A stretch of 64,000 nt of DNA from Parcubacteria group bacterium Gr01-1014_31 (GCA_007376135.1 VMFR01000001.1:270554-334553), one strand, 5' to 3'; positions 3,075 through 23,947 are shown, counted from the stretch's first letter. A program made the numbers and translations. The notes: generated by a model not told the origin, from the letters alone.

Positions 3075-4934
3075 ATGCTCCCCCAGCGAAAATTCCTTTC
3101 CCGCTACTGGAAGAACGAGCGCGGCGCCATCGCGGCGATCTTTGTGTTCATCATGCTGGCGCAGGGCTTCTCGCTGTTGGAGCCCTACCTGTGGACCCGC
3201 CTGCTGGACGGCTTTCTCAAGGAAGTAACGGACCGCTCCAAGTTCCCGACCGAGGAAATATTCTTCGGGCAGGTCACCGGTATCGTGCTGTTCTGGGTTT
3301 CGGCGGCGCTGGCCTCCCGAACGGCAAAAAATATCCACCAATTCTACGCCACCACGCTGGCCGACCGCGTCGGCATCCGCGTTTTTCTGCATGCGTTCTC
3401 GCACGTGCTTTCCCTGCCAATGCGCTTCCACGCCAACGTCAAAGGCGGCGAGCTGTTCCGGAAGCTGACCAAGGCGCGCACCGACGTGACGGCGTTCCTG
3501 ACCACCTACTTTGAAAAGATCTTTCAAAACGCGTTCGCTATCGCTTTGGTCGCCGCCTACACGTTCATCCGCAACTGGCGGATGGGGTTGGCCCTGATCG
3601 TCTTTATCCCGCCGTTCCTGCTGGTGACCGCGTTGCTGACCCGCCGCATCCGGCACATTCAGAACCGCATCAACAAGGCGAACGAAACGCTGTTTGGCAC
3701 CACCGTGGAAGCCATCACCCACATTGAAGTGGTCAAGGCATTCGCCACGGCGTCCCACGAGCACCGGCTGGCCTCGCGCGACCACCGTATCGCCCACGCC
3801 CACGTGCAGGAACGCACCCGCGCCTACCAGATCCTGACGTTCACCCAGGGCACCATCATTAACCTGGCGCGCGTGACCATGATCTGGTACGGCGCGCTGC
3901 TCCTGTTCCGCGGCCAGCTGTCGTTCGGCGATCTGGTCCTCTTCAACATCTTCACCTTCTGGGTCTACCAGCCGCTCTACGAGCTGGGCGAGATCTACGC
4001 CAAGTATCAGGAGGGCGTGAACGCCGTGGAGCGCCTGCAGACGGTGCTGCGCGAACCGACCGATGAGGTCATCAGCGCATCGGCGGTCATTCCCGAAAAG
4101 CTGCGGGGCGACATCGAATTCCGCCACGTCGGCTTCACCTACGGCGACGAGCAGCGCGAGGTCCTGCGCGACGTGTCGTTCCGCGTCAAACCGGGACAAA
4201 AGCTGGCGCTGGTCGGGATGTCGGGTTCCGGCAAGACCACGGTGGTCAAGCTGCTGCTCCGCTTCTTTGCGCCGACCAACGGCCAGGTCCTGGTGGACGG
4301 GCGCGGCCTGCGCGACTACGACCTTGAGGCCCTGCGCAACCGCATCGGCCTGGTGATGCAGGACAACATCCTCTTCAACATGAGCCTGGCGGACAACATC
4401 CGCTACGGCACGTTCGATGCCACCGACGAGCAGGTCATCGCCGCGGCGCGGCGGGCGTACCTCGACGACCTGGTCGCCACGCTGCCCGACGGCTACAAGA
4501 CCCTGATCGGCGAGCGCGGCATCAAGCTGTCGGGCGGCGAGCGCCAGCGGGTCGCCATCGCCCGCGCCATCATCAAGCAGCCCGACATCCTCATCTTTGA
4601 CGAAGCCACCTCGGCCCTGGACTCCCGCTCTGAAGAGCTCATCAAGCGCGCCATCCAGGAGGTTTCGACCGGGGTCACGACCATCACGGTCGCCCACCGC
4701 TTCGCCACCGTCATGAACGCCGACGAGATCCTCCTTTTTGAGCGAGGACGCATCATGGAACGCGGGACCCACGGACAATTGCTAAAACGCCATGGGCGCT
4801 ACCGCGAACTTTTTGAACTGCAGACCCAGTACGGGGTAACCCTGGCTTCTCCCCGCAAACCGGAAGAACCGACGCTGGCGCCGGAACAGCTGAACGGACA
4901 CAACCATCCCCAGGGCGACGAAACCATGACTTGA
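3075..4934 (+). CDS. ABC transporter, fused permease/ATP-binding (type I exporter, MsbA-like)
   Basis: N-terminal 6-TM domain, Walker A GMSGSGKTT, signature LSGGERQRVAIARA, Walker B ILIFDEATSALD. Confidence 0.85.
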   Translation: MLPQRKFLSRYWKNERGAIAAIFVFIMLAQGFSLLEPYLWTRLLDGFLKEVTDRSKFPTEEIFFGQVTGIVLFWVSAALASRTAKNIHQFYATTLADRVGIRVFLHAFSHVLSLPMRFHANVKGGELFRKLTKARTDVTAFLTTYFEKIFQNAFAIALVAAYTFIRNWRMGLALIVFIPPFLLVTALLTRRIRHIQNRINKANETLFGTTVEAITHIEVVKAFATASHEHRLASRDHRIAHAHVQERTRAYQILTFTQGTIINLARVTMIWYGALLLFRGQLSFGDLVLFNIFTFWVYQPLYELGEIYAKYQEGVNAVERLQTVLREPTDEVISASAVIPEKLRGDIEFRHVGFTYGDEQREVLRDVSFRVKPGQKLALVGMSGSGKTTVVKLLLRFFAPTNGQVLVDGRGLRDYDLEALRNRIGLVMQDNILFNMSLADNIRYGTFDATDEQVIAAARRAYLDDLVATLPDGYKTLIGERGIKLSGGERQRVAIARAIIKQPDILIFDEATSALDSRSEELIKRAIQEVSTGVTTITVAHRFATVMNADEILLFERGRIMERGTHGQLLKRHGRYRELFELQTQYGVTLASPRKPEEPTLAPEQLNGHNHPQGDETMT

Positions 4935-20051: not shown

Positions 20052-20483
20052 CTACACTCCCAGCTCGCCCAGCGCTTCCGAAATTTCCACGCTCTTCCCT
20101 TCGGTCTGCTTCTTGTATTCGTTCCACTTGGCGGCGTCCCAGATCTCCAATCGGTTGTAGAGGCCGGCAATGACCACCTGCTTGCCCAATCCGGCGAACT
20201 GGCGCAAGTATTCGGGTACGCTGATGCGGCCCTGCCCGTCCGGGGAAACGTCCATCGCACCGGCCAGCATCAGCCGGGCGAATGCCCGCGTATTGGCCTT
20301 CGCCAAGGGCAACGCGGCCAGTTTCGCGACCAGCTTCCCCCACTCGGCCTGGGTGTAGACGAACAAACAGCTGTCCAGCCCCCGGGTAACGACCACGCCG
20401 CGCCGCAATACCGCGCGAAACTTCGCCGGCACGGCGATTCGTCCTTTTTCGTCAACGGAATGCTGGTATTCGCCGATGAACAT
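20052..20483 (-). CDS. mraZ: transcriptional regulator MraZ
   Basis: MFIGEYQHSVDEKGRIAVPAKFR duplicated MraZ domain signature; ATG at 20481-20483. Confidence 0.9.
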   Translation of the reverse strand: MFIGEYQHSVDEKGRIAVPAKFRAVLRRGVVVTRGLDSCLFVYTQAEWGKLVAKLAALPLAKANTRAFARLMLAGAMDVSPDGQGRISVPEYLRQFAGLGKQVVIAGLYNRLEIWDAAKWNEYKKQTEGKSVEISEALGELGV

Positions 20484-20524
20484 ACGCCGCTGCAATGTTG
20501 CTGAGATATCCACAAATTCGAGTC

Positions 20525-20600
20525 CTTCTCCCCACTTTTATCCACTTTTCACCACTATACCTACATTTTATACCACCACAACACCACTGTCAACCACTTT
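20525..20600 (-). promoter_or_regulatory. mraZ promoter (TTGACA/TATAAAAT on minus strand) with three 10-bp-phased GTGG[T/A/G] direct repeats (MraZ boxes) in the leader
   Basis: minus-strand reading ttgacagtggtgttgtggtggtataaaat then gtggtgaaaa gtggataaaa gtggggagaa. Confidence 0.45.
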
Positions 20601-20664
20601 CAAATAGCCAATTTTCCTCAAAATTAAGTCAAAAAAACACCATATCAGTCAAGATATGGTCCAA

Positions 20665-21655
20665 CCTGTGGATATGTGCACAGGTATCCCTTGACAACAT
20701 AATACACAGGAGTATGCTGCCAATATATGGCCAAGAGCGACAAGTACGGTATCTACGACCTGCGCAACGAGTTCCCCACGGATGACGCCTGTTTGGAATA
20801 CATTTTCCGGGTGTTACACAGCGAACGCTGCTCGTGTGGGGGCCGTTACAAACGGCTACCCGAACGGCGGCAGTGGCAATGTTCCAAATGCCGCTACCAG
20901 ATCGCCCCGACAGCGGGTACCCTCTTTGAAAAATCTGCAACACCCTTGACCAAGTGGTTTCACGCCTTATTCGTCTTTTCCAGTGCGAAAAGCGGCCTGT
21001 CGGGCAAGCAACTGGAACGGGAACTGAACGTTACCTACAAGACCGCTTGGCGAATGTTAAAACTTATCCGGGCGTCCCTCCCCAACAAAAAACACCGCCT
21101 GCTGGGCGATGTGGAGATGGACGAAACCTACTTTGGTGGGAAAGGTAACGCCGGGAAGAACAACCAGGACCTAGGCAAAGTGATGGACGATAAATCCGTT
21201 ATCCTTGGCGCGGTGGAGCGCGACGGGGAAATCCGGGCAGAAGTGGCCCCGAACGCCAAGGCGGCGACCATCGGACAATTCCTCCATACCAACGTGGAGA
21301 GGGTCAAAACGCGCCTGCTGACCGATGAGAGCAACCGCTACGACTTGGTAGCCAAGCGGTACCACCGCCAGAGCGTCAACCACTCACAACAGGAGTACGT
21401 GCGGGACGACGTACATACCAACACCATTGAGGGGTTCTGGTCGCACGTGAAGCGCAGCATCTCCGGCACCCACAAGGCCGTATCTAGGCGGTATCTCCAG
21501 TCTTACCTGGATGGCTTCGTCTGGCACTATAACAACCGGCACAGCGACAGGGACCGTTTTTCCGCCTTGCTTTACGGCCTGTTGCGATGACGTGGCGCAG
21601 GGCCTCGTGGAACTTGATTTTTTTACCCGATTGTTCCATACTGTGTAACAATACC
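20665..21655 (+). mobile_element. IS1595-family insertion sequence (boundaries approximate)
   Basis: single transposase ORF; imperfect terminal inverted repeats cctgtggatatgtgcacaggtatccc (20665-20690) vs ccatactgtgtaacaatacc (21636-21655); AT-rich relative to surroundings. Confidence 0.45.
20727..21590 (+). CDS. IS1595-family transposase (ISXO2-like DDE domain with N-terminal zinc ribbon)
   Basis: N-terminal CxxC...CxxC zinc ribbon (CSCGG...CSKC), conserved TDESNRY and NTIEGFWSHVKR motifs. Confidence 0.85.
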   Translation: MAKSDKYGIYDLRNEFPTDDACLEYIFRVLHSERCSCGGRYKRLPERRQWQCSKCRYQIAPTAGTLFEKSATPLTKWFHALFVFSSAKSGLSGKQLERELNVTYKTAWRMLKLIRASLPNKKHRLLGDVEMDETYFGGKGNAGKNNQDLGKVMDDKSVILGAVERDGEIRAEVAPNAKAATIGQFLHTNVERVKTRLLTDESNRYDLVAKRYHRQSVNHSQQEYVRDDVHTNTIEGFWSHVKRSISGTHKAVSRRYLQSYLDGFVWHYNNRHSDRDRFSALLYGLLR

Positions 21656-21659
21656 TCTC

Positions 21660-21689
21660 TTGACAGCAACCTTCAAGGTCTGGTACGAT
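21660..21689 (+). promoter_or_regulatory. sigma70-like promoter (TTGACA-18-TACGAT) abutting the IS right end, driving the downstream non-coding unit
   Basis: ttgaca at 21660-21665, tacgat at 21684-21689. Confidence 0.45.
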
Positions 21690-21695
21690 GATCGT

Positions 21696-22312
21696 GCTAC
21701 AAAATTGAATAAAAATCTCCGTAAACTTGCAACGGAGGGCCAGCAGCGCTGCTTGCGCACGAACAACCGCAAAGGTCAGTGCTCGAAGGGGAAGACCGCA
21801 AGGTCAACCCAACGAGCCGCAAGTCCGTTGGGTATCTACGAAAATAGTACCCGACGAGCGCTGGCCCTTGAGGTTGTTTTTTATAACGCAGCTTTACGGT
21901 CTAAGTCTGCACGCCAGCAGCTGGTGGTGCGCAGATCGGACCGTTAAGTCCGAGGGTCGCTTCGCCCGTCGCTCAAAGGTCGTTCTGGCAGTACATCCAG
22001 AGAGTGAAAAGAAGCAGAAATTAATGTACGGCCTGTGCCATACATTATTTACCAAGTCGGACGCGACGCTGAAACCGGTGAATTCCTCACCGTGGAAGAG
22101 GCGCGACGCCGACCAAGCACTGCGGTAGTGGAGACTATCCGCCGAAAGGTGTGATAGCATACCACTTCCCGCAAGTACCGTATCGGAGACCTACGTTTCC
22201 GGTAATCACAAAAGCCGCTGATTAAAGCGGCTCGGTGATCCAACTACTAACGATAGTTGGCGGTTTGTACAGCGATTTCCCCGTTCTCACGAACGGGGAT
22301 TTCGTTTTATTT
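21696..22312 (+). ncRNA. candidate ~600-nt non-coding RNA of unknown class (promoter to intrinsic terminator, no credible ORF)
   Basis: bounded by promoter 21660-21689 and terminator 22277-22312; contains four CCGCAAG(G)T repeats and multiple hairpins; moderate GC unlike flanking low-GC genes. Confidence 0.3.
22277..22312 (+). terminator. intrinsic terminator
   Basis: tccccgttc-tcac-gaacgggga hairpin + tttcgttttatttgg. Confidence 0.6.
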
Positions 22313-22357
22313 GGAATGTTGAGGGTAGCACCGCCTTAAATCCTTGTCAAGTGATTA

Positions 22358-22774
22358 CTAACCACCTAAATTCTCAATAATTCTTCTAAGTTTTGGCAAA
22401 ATTGCACCGGGGGGAGCACTCAATATTTCGCGCTTAATATTCTGCAGATCAGCATCGCATAAAGATCGGAGCATTTCGTAACCTTGTAAGGATGTCTCAT
22501 CATGATCTGTGTGGTGCAACATCGCTATACGTTCACGAAATTGTTCTGTGGTCAATCTGGTATATAGATAGACTGGAGAGTTCACATTTCTTGACGTACT
22601 TTGGGTTGGGGGCTGTGTCGAACGCCATTCATCTAGTCTTATGACTTGCCGTGAGGTTGCAACGTCCGGAATACATGCCAAAAAAATTATCCTTTCTTCC
22701 GGAACTGACCCTAAAAAAACATAGTCATTCTCTCCTTCGGTATCAGTTAGCCTAATTACGTTCCCGAATACCAT
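22358..22774 (-). CDS. hypothetical 138-aa protein, candidate toxin partner of the Panacea-domain antitoxin (possible HEPN-like Rx4H: RIAMLHH)
   Basis: ATG 2 nt downstream of the Panacea gene stop (translational coupling); low GC; no recognisable domain. Confidence 0.5.
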   Translation of the reverse strand: MVFGNVIRLTDTEGENDYVFLGSVPEERIIFLACIPDVATSRQVIRLDEWRSTQPPTQSTSRNVNSPVYLYTRLTTEQFRERIAMLHHTDHDETSLQGYEMLRSLCDADLQNIKREILSAPPGAILPKLRRIIENLGG

Positions 22775-22776
22775 AT

Positions 22777-23316
22777 CTACTTTAGGCTGACCAAAATTTT
22801 TATTTCTTCCTCAGTTATTTTACTATCATTATCAAGGGCGGCTAGAGAATAGGGTATTTCAGTTGGTTCTTTAGTATTAATCCATGCACTTTCACCATGA
22901 GATGCCTCGACGATATATTTTGTGTTTTTGTCGCTGAATCTCTGGCATACGTCCTTGAGAGTTTGCAATTCCCTCTCGGTGAAATATTCGTTATCACTTG
23001 CAGTGAACGGTTTCAGGCAGATAATTTTCTGAAAATTTCTACCATCAACAAACCTCACCGAAATCGTATCGGAGAGTAACGCTGTTTCCGGCTCATCTAT
23101 TACGCTATTAACAAGATTGAGAATATTTGATGGAACGGGGCCGCGCTCCAAATGAACATATCTATCGTAGGTAATTGGGACACCAAATTTTTTAACGTGT
23201 GTAAAATCAGCAAAATAAAAAAGTTTCATCAACTTCGTTTTTCCTAACAGATTAGGATCTGTATTGCTACAGAAAAACCTAATCATCGCCTTCAATTTTG
23301 TCCTTGGAATTCTCAT
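22777..23316 (-). CDS. Panacea-domain (DUF4065, SocA/GepA-like) putative antitoxin
   Basis: KLMKLFYFADFTHVKKFGVPITYDRYVHLERGPV matches the Panacea/DUF4065 core (KLxKLLYFAD...G.P....Y....GPV); GGGGG SD before ATG at 23314-23316; low GC. Confidence 0.7.
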   Translation of the reverse strand: MRIPRTKLKAMIRFFCSNTDPNLLGKTKLMKLFYFADFTHVKKFGVPITYDRYVHLERGPVPSNILNLVNSVIDEPETALLSDTISVRFVDGRNFQKIICLKPFTASDNEYFTERELQTLKDVCQRFSDKNTKYIVEASHGESAWINTKEPTEIPYSLAALDNDSKITEEEIKILVSLK

Positions 23317-23489
23317 TGGCACCCCCAACCACTAACAGGATAACACGATAATATTCTTTCTCCTAATAATACGACGACTTTAAGGCATTAATTCTATCAT
23401 AAATCCAATACAGTGTCAATATCTATGCATCTTAGTCATTTATTTCACTATTCTCCGCTCAACCCAGCAAAACAAAGTATGTTCGGGGG

Positions 23490-23518
23490 GGATATGGGCG
23501 GATATGTGCGGATATGTG
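23490..23518. repeat. tandem direct repeat, 3 copies of GGATATG[G/T]GC
   Basis: ggatatgggc ggatatgtgc ggatatgtg; same 10-mer as in the IS left inverted repeat (20669-20678). Confidence 0.6.
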
Positions 23519-23542
23519 AAAAAAAGTGGCGGCAGCCACTTT
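23518..23542 (-). terminator. intrinsic terminator for tsaB operon (minus strand)
   Basis: agtggc-ggca-gccact hairpin with A-run on plus strand (T-run on minus). Confidence 0.5.
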
Positions 23543-23569
23543 CTCGTCATCCGTTCTCGGGCGTGGCTC

Positions 23570-23947
23570 TCAGCGCTTTACGGTCACCTGCGGCTCGGAA
23601 AGATAGCGCGGATGGACCCAGGTAATGGCACGAGCGCGTTTTCCGGCCTGCGCGACAACCTCTCGGAGTGTTACCGACCGCACCGGCACCCCCCAAGCGT
23701 AGCTCAGGGCGTTACCGGCAACCGCGCCGGCGCGCAGTTGGGTGAACCCGGCGTGGCCGAGCGGGTCCTCAACCACGGTCACCACTTCGGGAACAGCGCG
23801 GCCGCGCAGCAAAGCGGCGACCAGTGGCAGTATGCGCTCCGTCCCGTGGAATGGCGTTGCCGCCGTCGCCCGAGCGATGACCCGACGGCCATCGAGCAGC
23901 AATGCGGTGACGCGCTGCGGAACGGTCGTATCAAGACGCAGTTCCAT
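23570..23947 (-). CDS. tsaB: tRNA threonylcarbamoyladenosine biosynthesis protein TsaB (short form)
   Basis: N-terminal ELRLDTT..LALLLDGRRV and FTQLRAGAVAGNALSYAWGVPV match YeaZ/TsaB N-domain; 125 aa truncated form. Confidence 0.65.
   Translation of the reverse strand: MELRLDTTVPQRVTALLLDGRRVIARATAATPFHGTERILPLVAALLRGRAVPEVVTVVEDPLGHAGFTQLRAGAVAGNALSYAWGVPVRSVTLREVVAQAGKRARAITWVHPRYLSEPQVTVKR

Follow-up and report, generated by a model that had tools for sequence, protein, structure and literature searches.

A cargo-carrying IS1595-family transposon with a candidate large structured RNA between mraZ and tsaB of a Parcubacteria bacterium

Results

Genes and features at the locus

We analysed a 64,000-nucleotide (nt) stretch of DNA from Parcubacteria group bacterium Gr01-1014_31 (GCA_007376135.1 VMFR01000001.1:270554-334553), called the window below, and in particular a segment of it (20679-23500) lying between a minus-strand dcw cluster, ftsI-ftsL-rsmH-mraZ (mraZ ATG at 20483), and a TsaB-like gene on its right (23570-23947, 125 aa). 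The segment contains a transposase of the IS1595 family of insertion sequences (IS), a unit free of open reading frames (ORFs), and a Panacea gene pair of the toxin-antitoxin (TA) type. Loci used for comparison carry L numbers. The features of the segment and its two junctions, given by position in the window, are:

20671-20678, no strand: left copy of the target-site duplication GATATGTG; with the preceding CTGTG it makes up the DnaA-box-like target TGTGGATAT
20679-20703, plus: left terminal inverted repeat, cacagg followed by TATCCCTTGACAACATAAT
20727-21590, plus: IS1595-family DDE transposase, 287 aa, with Pfam PF12762 and NCBIfam matches
21591-21659, plus: element backbone 3' of the transposase, common with the L002 element to ~21640 (TTGATTTTTT...TTGTTCCATA)
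21660-21689, plus: promoter of the RNA unit, TTGACA-18-TACGAT, sigma70-like, with an extended -10 (TG upstream)
21696-22312, plus: ORF-free structured unit of ~617 nt, a candidate large noncoding RNA (ncRNA), its 5' end placed from the promoter
22278-22299, then T-run to 22312, plus: intrinsic terminator of the RNA unit
22358-22774, minus: 138-aa Panacea partner, putative toxin, of no known family
22777-23328, minus: Panacea (SocA-like, PF13274) protein, putative antitoxin (E 5.7e-19, 69.6 bits, cut-off 25.7)
23477-23500, minus: right terminal inverted repeat, ...GTATGTTCGGGGGGGATA followed by tgggcg, homologous to the right end of the L002 element
23501-23508, no strand: right copy of the target-site duplication GATATGTG

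Borders of the element

The segment measures 2,822 bp, and the transposase, RNA unit and Panacea pair all lie within it. It is flanked by a perfect 8-bp duplication, GATATGTG, at 20671-20678 and 23501-23508, and 8 bp is the target duplication length expected of IS1595-family elements. The left and right ends of the segment match at 14 of 24 positions as terminal inverted repeats, and both are homologous to the ends of a related element at locus L002. The 19-mer TATCCCTTGACAACATAAT upstream of the transposase is identical in L002-L006 and carries 1-3 differences in L012 and L007; in many relatives an inverted copy of it recurs 1.5-3.2 kb downstream, past other genes. A systematic scan found the same arrangement in the window and in 16 sister elements: an 8-bp direct repeat, 6 nt, TATCCC, the interior of the element, GGGATA, 6 nt and the same 8 bp again. 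We conclude, with a probability of about 0.8, that one cargo-carrying IS1595-family transposon (a 'transporter IS'), inserted recently, accounts for 20679-23500, rather than an IS accompanied by loose relics.

These borders change how the repeats of the locus are read. The initial annotation had noted a 10-mer on the left and as three tandem copies on the right, and this 10-mer, GGATATGTGC, was confirmed at 20670-20679 and, as the tandem copies, at 23490-23519. The tandem array resolves into the right tip of the element (23490-23499), a copy that contains the duplication (23500-23509) and a host copy (23510-23519), so that what had been proposed as transposase-binding relics is actually made up of the 8-bp duplication GATATGTG, the tip at the right end of the transposon and an additional copy belonging to the host. 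By count alone the 10-mer shows no enrichment across the window (with <=1 mismatch, 5 matches vs 3.5 expected); its significance comes from its position as target-site duplication and not from its frequency. It does mark edges, as had been suggested, but those of one element and not of the whole island, whose left 195 bp (20484-20678) lie outside. The terminal repeats are imperfect, as described earlier, but the right end is at 23500 instead of ~21655. An IS of ~1 kb with its end near 21655 does not apply, as all three modules are part of the 2,822-bp transposon. A check for target-site duplications at 20665 and 21655 had been advised; neither a duplication nor an inverted repeat was found near 21655, and the perfect pair is the one given above. 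A right end just 3' of the RNA unit, at 22344-22368 (inverted repeat I4, 72%), was considered and rejected: no duplication is found there, and the true right end is the one homologous with L002.

Empty sites in relatives

The window locus was compared with relatives that carry no element. In L086/L087, the closest relative found (97% identity of the neighbouring protein, 87-90% nucleotide identity of the flanks), tsaB and mraZ are 256 nt apart and the site CCTGTGGATAGATG is present once. The empty site of L086 reads ...CCTGTG GATAGATG TGTTTTT...AAAAAAGTGGCGGCTGCCACTT, with a single unduplicated copy. L088/L089 (78%) and L092 (83%) are also empty, with TGTGGATAA or CTGGGGATAA at that spot. The adjacency of mraZ and tsaB in IS-free relatives, which the initial annotation had asked to be checked, was therefore found in L086/L087, L088/L089 and L092, and its proposal of a horizontally acquired insertion between these two genes holds. 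From the empty sites, and from differing duplications at the same box in two genomes, we infer that the element is mobile. This exact transposase protein occurs in 2 contigs.

In addition to its left copy, GATATGTG is doubled on the right flank (23501-23518), and the empty-site relative has one. The doubling could be the footprint of an earlier insertion and excision, or the result of slippage.

Transposase

The IS1595-family assignment made initially was borne out by PF12762 (DDE_Tnp_IS1595, ISXO2-like; E 2.4e-36, 125.5 bits, cut-off 27) and by NF033547 (NCBIfam transpos_IS1595; 182 bits, cut-off 75). D132, D200, E235 and K242 are invariant among six transposases that are 42-84% identical, in a DDE(6)K arrangement, and by motif position alone they would be the catalytic residues. 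The N-terminus is a Cys-rich, zinc-ribbon-like region. A promoter scan placed the -35 of the transposase promoter, TTGACA (20691-20696), inside the left terminal inverted repeat, with a -10, TATGCT, that ends at 20718. The transposase would bind the subterminal TATCCC motifs and, with the -35 of its own promoter placed within the left repeat, is likely to control its own expression.

Sister elements and their cargo

Relatives of the transposase were collected from 16 genome loci and 66 metagenome loci. The 16 sister elements of the scan (12 distinct ones once duplicate contigs are merged; sizes 1.5-3.2 kb) are all flanked by perfect 8-bp duplications, and in all of them the right end lies beyond the cargo. 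Their inverted repeats are much better than those of the window element: the first 26 aligned end positions of L008 match (32 of 38 overall), and the repeat of L007 is ~45 nt long. Within a constant frame the load varies, comprising tRNA genes, other structured RNAs and toxin-antitoxin-like pairs. tRNA genes lie inside the elements of L002, L005, L007, L023, L025 and L041, and in L035, with its right end unmapped, a tRNA gene adjoins the transposase. Other cargo includes an ImmA-like peptidase in L006 and a HicA/HicB-like pair in L023, and a Panacea pair homologous to that of the window is carried in L022 and L004.

One class-II (Leu-like, long variable arm) tRNA body recurs in four elements: L007 2426-2513(-), L035 4258-4345(-), L005 7100-7192(+) and L023 1399-1497(+). 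By alignment, these tRNAs have different anticodons (UAA, AUC, CCU and UAU). As the identity of class-II tRNAs does not usually depend on the anticodon, these could have had their anticodons switched.

ORF-poor cargo of several sisters folds far beyond shuffled controls (z -9.6 in L025, -9.4 in L026, -9.0 in L005 and -7.0 in L023), part of the signal being due to tRNA genes within those stretches. L023 (1196-1352) and L034 (6512-6672) have in common a non-coding element of ~150 nt with a long stem, 7 compensatory pairs and a promoter-like site upstream; it matched no Rfam family, and 44 loci held no further copy. Given this element and the structured sister cargo, RNA cargo is recurrent in the clade. 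In L026 (5535-6225), a cargo stretch of ~690 nt has z values of -9.4 and -10.0 on its two strands; within it is a 57-aa ORF preceded by a strong ribosome-binding site, AAGGAGG (MTQPIIVHTGEKAPESGIYRY...), and a minus-strand promoter and terminator bracket the stretch.

The ORF-free RNA unit

That the unit runs from a sigma70-like promoter (21660-21689) to an intrinsic terminator (22278-22312) free of ORFs had been recognised initially and was confirmed. A promoter-like TTGACA is found at the equivalent place in L002. The plus strand of the unit is predicted to fold at -272 kcal/mol vs -201 +/- 6 for dinucleotide shuffles, and two fold runs gave z values of -12.2 and -12.8 for the plus strand vs -9.5 and -7.3 for the minus strand. 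When 200-nt windows were examined, excess stability (z -2.2 to -7.3) was seen only in 21700-22399, and local z in the coding flanks stayed mostly within +/-2, the outermost values being -3.8 and +2.4. In the predicted fold, 202 pairs are distributed over several domains, and GCAA and GAAA tetraloops occur. Domain A (21761-21878) consists of a long stem with a three-way-junction cap and two GCAA loops, followed by U6, and the 3' domain (22119-22270) is a multi-hairpin. The unit thus combines several features expected of a structured ncRNA gene: its own promoter and terminator, no ORF with a Shine-Dalgarno site, and stability beyond shuffles.

Searches for relatives of the unit were negative throughout. 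No tested frame matched Pfam or PHROG, and a concatenated six-frame translation found no protein homolog among 5.8 billion proteins. Rfam 15, whose families include OLE, ROOL, GOLLD, HEARO, raiA, RNase P, tmRNA, group I/II introns and tRNA, gave no match at gathering thresholds over the 64 kb and none at E<=1 over 20300-23700, and ARAGORN found nothing. No RNA homolog was recovered by blastn from plasmid and phage collections, by nhmmer and blastn from 82 related-transposase loci, or by four pattern scans of viral contigs; 18-mer matches in two viral contigs (L084 and L085) were judged by nhmmer to be due to chance. The model of the L023/L034 cargo RNA had no match in the window, and literature searches for large ncRNAs of the candidate phyla radiation (CPR) returned nothing relevant.

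Single-sequence covariance models of domain A and the 3' domain gave only one weak lead. The basal stem of domain A with its U-run resembles a hairpin that immediately precedes the class-II tRNA genes carried by L007, L036 and L035 (25 bits, E ~5e-4). This likeness is a hint that the cargo RNA cassettes have a common origin, or that an internal terminator is present. A role of the RNA as antisense regulator or antitoxin of the neighbouring TA pair was rejected, as homologous pairs occur without the RNA (L022 and L093) and no meaningful complementarity was found.

In the working model, the ~617-nt unit would be transcribed from its own sigma70-type promoter to the intrinsic terminator as a stable, trans-acting structured ncRNA, and would occupy the cargo slot that holds tRNA genes or other structured RNAs in sister elements. 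By analogy with the tRNA cargo, our best guess at its role, offered with low confidence, is a translation- or defence-related accessory. That it is a functional large ncRNA of a new class we regard as slightly favoured by the balance of evidence.

The Panacea gene pair

The Panacea pair reported initially is present, as a PF13274 ORF (22777-23328, minus) and a 138-aa ORF (22358-22774, minus). The Panacea gene is the first of a two-gene operon, with a promoter at 23419..23391 (TTGACA-17-TAGAAT) and a 2-nt gap between the ORFs. Homologous partners adjoin Panacea genes in L022 (E 6e-7) and L093 (P0121, 61% identical); a search of 5.8 billion non-redundant protein sequences gave one homolog of the 138-aa partner, and exact-sequence look-ups of both proteins found nothing on record. 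Structure-based identification of the partner was dropped because its AlphaFold model was unreliable (predicted local distance difference test score, pLDDT, 51.5). On account of family membership, the two proteins are taken as a putative toxin-antitoxin (addiction) module that would stabilise the element. Because the Panacea pair of L022 directly follows the transposase, the RNA unit is an extra module in the window element.

The pair is also found standing alone in the STB_141 genome (L093). There it is flanked by palindrome copies, TTTTTTGCCACCTTTG..CAAAGGTGGC, at 2150-2200 and 3450-3500, and this arrangement suggests that the TA cassette may move between such hairpins independently of the IS.

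Target choice

The L002 locus, from Patescibacteria STB_141, carries a related element (transposase 84% identical) in the same box with a different perfect duplication, GACAAAAT. As the duplications differ and three intervening relatives are empty, the comparison points to independent insertions in the two genomes. We reconstructed empty sites for the CPR clade, all in one orientation, and counted 12 independent insertions. Eleven of them fall at (c)tGTG^GATAA, a 9-mer with at most one mismatch from the DnaA-box consensus TTATCCACA, and with a background box frequency of 3.6e-4 per position in these loci the binomial P is 1.4e-37. The register is fixed and the element may lie in either orientation. 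Of the two staggered target cuts, one separates CTGTG from GATAA (the 9-mer being TTATCCACA in reverse complement). GATAA or TTATC is likewise seen at the left junctions of additional, incomplete copies. More distant clades, with transposases ~40% identical, have other, partly palindromic targets such as GTGA-N8-TCAC.

An origin of replication at the locus was rejected: the cumulative GC skew passes straight through, and the target boxes in other loci are mostly solitary. Since most boxes are solitary and the skew shows no origin here, we read the preference as direct sequence recognition and not as origin targeting. Literature searches on IS1595 target specificity and DnaA-box targeting found no report of a CTGTG^GATAA preference.

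Two sister elements lie tens to a few hundred bp from tmRNA genes (L034 4519-4910 and L039 6456-6807). Their targets are not DnaA-box-like: they are CAATGGTC and CCAAATAG, the latter within GTGA-N8-TCAC.

Host DNA around the element

Two stretches that border the element belong to the host:

20484-20670, minus: native mraZ upstream region, outside the element, present in L086, L088, L092 and L002
23509-23542, minus: host flank, outside the element, with a homologous counterpart in L086; CG and a third GATATGTG (23511-23518) are followed by the terminator hairpin near tsaB (AAAAAAAGTGGCGGCAGCCACTTT)

The 195 bp next to mraZ (20484-20678) are native DNA, because they are present almost base for base in the IS-free genomes; L002 also has the same sequence. 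On the minus strand they carry the mraZ promoter (TTGACA 20593..TAAAAT 20565) and a terminator hairpin (20639-20660). Between the promoter and the start codon lie three CCAC boxes (GTGG on the mraZ strand) at an exact 10-bp spacing (20532-20555), a triple conserved in five related genomes (the window, L002 5806-5830, L086, L088 and L092) that, going by published MraZ sites, looks like the autoregulatory operator of MraZ. Two DnaA-box-like 9-mers, at 20506-20514 and 20538-20546, overlap this operator-like region, and by published consensus sequences they would be DnaA sites. An 'inverted partial copy' of the IS end (ATATCCACA) had been placed at 20496-20510 and read as an IS relic. The actual sequence, atatccacaaattc, is at 20506-20519, and it is a host DnaA-box-like motif that also occurs in the IS-free L086, L088 and L092.

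The mraZ leaders of L002 (5593-5780) and L088 (9400-9600) contain ~190 nt extra, bounded by an inverted repeat (cctggtgctacaac ... gttgtagcaccggg), that are absent from the window and L086. This insert may be similar to a miniature inverted-repeat transposable element, or it may be a structured leader.

Host GC is ~60-70%, and the neighbouring protein, of 210 aa, matches one of Parcubacteria group bacterium Gr01-1014_31 at 100% identity. The description of the island as 35-50% GC throughout applies to the TA part (36-44%) and to the native intergenic stretch (~45%), but not to the transposase and RNA unit (50-59%). The whole island is 100% identical over 3,087 nt in the Logan SRR8863434 assembly (L001). 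Gene calls of that assembly show nothing between the transposase and tsaB, which leaves the TA genes and the RNA unit unannotated there. The gene labelled 'tsaB' (23570-23947) scores 34.7 bits against TIGR03725, below the 69.3 cut-off; only the N-terminal half of the TsaB model is matched, and the versions in relatives are 125-188 aa long.

Alternative explanations

The alternative that survives best, although we still think it unlikely, is that the ORF-free unit is not a functional RNA gene. It might be decaying cargo (a structured leader, tRNA operon or gene remnant), a hairpin buffer against convergent transcription from the transposase and the TA operon, or a DNA cis element, its promoter and terminator being incidental. 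Such readings would account for the failure to find RNA homologs in the collections searched, for good folding of both strands, and for the fact that promoter-like matches are common in AT-richer DNA (9 found vs 3.5 expected); the likeness of domain A to the leader hairpin of L007, L036 and L035 would then suggest a rearranged derivative. However, the insertion is recent (the duplication is perfect, and the element is absent from the 97% relative), so that cargo has had little time to decay. A z of -12.8, 202 pairs and domains with GNRA loops far exceed the needs of a terminator buffer, the excess structure ends exactly at promoter and terminator, and the plus strand is clearly favoured (-12.8 vs -7.3).

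A second possibility, which we consider improbable, is that the window and L002 elements go back to a single insertion in a common ancestor, passed on vertically and since lost from L086, L088 and L092, in which case the shared box would be uninformative on target preference. The two elements do occupy the same locus in the same orientation, with both end regions homologous, and the 84% identity of their transposases is near that of the host MraZ (80%) and helix-turn-helix protein (82%). Against this, 5 of the 8 duplication positions are different in the two genomes although each duplication is perfect within its own, which would not be expected had the copies diverged independently; the three intervening relatives are empty, and the target preference is independently backed by 9 other loci.

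It is more improbable still that the unit is a small-protein mRNA with long structured untranslated regions. Small ORFs do exist in it (a 39-aa GTG ORF at 22035-22154 and a 34-aa ATG ORF at 22024-22128 are the candidates), and the L026 cargo, with its 57-aa ORF and strong Shine-Dalgarno in a structured stretch of ~690 nt, offers a precedent. None of the ORFs of the unit, however, is preceded by a Shine-Dalgarno-like site, the candidate start codons lie inside predicted helices, and the protein searches described above (Pfam, PHROG and six-frame) were empty.

Least probable is a ~1-kb IS1595 (~20665-21655) beside independently acquired RNA and TA modules, with the GGATATGTGC copies and the mraZ-side motif as binding-site or decayed composite-transposon relics: the 10-mer at both edges, the different GC of the three modules and the L022 TA pair that directly follows its transposase without an RNA would fit it, but there is no inverted repeat or duplication near 21655, all sister right ends lie beyond the cargo with a perfect 8-bp duplication, 20484-20678 with the mraZ-side motif is host DNA in IS-free relatives, and the GC differences fit cargo swapping inside a constant IS frame.

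Discussion

Several points weigh against the interpretation of the locus as one transposon that carries a functional RNA and a TA pair. The inverted repeats of the window element are poor and one copy is seen in the 64-kb window, and for these two reasons any current activity of it is putative. As GATATGTG occurs twice in the right host flank (23501-23518, with CG between), the right boundary is ambiguous by 10 bp and could lie further out (alternative at 23510). A single sequence represents the RNA (it is 100% identical in two assemblies), which consequently has no covariation support; its minus strand also folds well (z -7 to -9.5), and domain A with its U6 could be an internal terminator. 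The 138-aa partner has no known family and an unreliable model. The target preference, finally, may simply reflect the affinity of the transposase itself for TATCC-like DNA, the role of the DnaA box being putative.

A cargo-carrying IS1595 transposon is in itself a known kind of element. Passenger-carrying members, such as the '+' groups of ISNwi1, ISSod11 and ISPna2, are reportedly on record in ISfinder as 'transporter IS'. The window element resembles them in a DDE_Tnp_IS1595 transposase with an N-terminal zinc-ribbon or helix-turn-helix region, in its inverted repeats and 8-bp duplication, and in passengers placed between transposase and right end. Unlike them, the CPR clade has a strict CTGTG^GATAA preference, and what it carries is often an RNA gene (for a class-II tRNA or a structured RNA) or a TA-like pair, not resistance or metabolic genes. 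What goes beyond known IS1595 biology is the near-strict insertion into a DnaA-box-like 9-mer and the presence of RNA genes as cargo.

The cargo also has known counterparts. PanA/PanT toxin-antitoxin systems are said to be built around a Panacea/DUF4065 antitoxin domain, and the window pair is similar in that its Panacea gene forms a compact operon with one small gene unrelated to it, and in that the pair is mobile and found again in L022, L004 and L093. In contrast to PanA/PanT, the window partner falls in no known toxin family and is a putative toxin. GOLLD and ROOL are large structured ncRNAs of mobile elements, where they often lie beside tRNA genes. The RNA unit is comparable to GOLLD and ROOL (with OLE and raiA as comparators of size and complexity) in its ~600 nt, many helices, GNRA loops and own promoter and terminator, as well as in its location on a mobile element, the relatives of which have tRNA genes in the corresponding slot. 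It differs from GOLLD, ROOL, OLE and raiA in having no sequence or structure match (Rfam 15, E<=1) and in being known from one sequence.

With regard to target choice, a DnaA box lies inside the outside end of IS50/Tn5; there, unlike here, it is part of the transposon end and not the target. IS1202/ISAjo2-group elements target dif/pdif sites (PMC10132070), and IS that target repetitive extragenic palindromic (REP) sequences exist (PMC1525189). The CPR clade resembles these dif- and REP-targeting elements in that a DDE element inserts at a fixed distance from a short motif bound by a host protein (here putatively). Unlike in those cases, the motif is DnaA-box-like, the cut falls inside it, and the element takes either orientation.

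For annotation, a single transposon with precise borders replaces four apparently separate oddities, and the region of the mraZ operator is native. A DDE element that cuts inside a DnaA-box-like 9-mer in 11 of 12 insertions would be a compact, protein-only case of sequence-specific insertion, and it raises the question of DnaA involvement. CPR bacteria have tiny genomes and few known mobile elements, and through a clade that transfers tRNA genes, structured RNAs and TA modules they could plausibly exchange translation and defence accessories. Most tentatively, and with less confidence than we place in the RNA as such, the ~617-nt unit might be the first member of a new class of large ornate ncRNAs moved between CPR bacteria as IS cargo, the carrier being an unrecognised IS1595 clade that homes to DnaA-box-like sites and is specialised in RNA genes, including class-II tRNAs (UAA, AUC, CCU, UAU) that could recode or rescue translation. 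If the ~617-nt RNA is real, it would add to the large bacterial ncRNAs a new one whose promoter, terminator and mobile context are defined.

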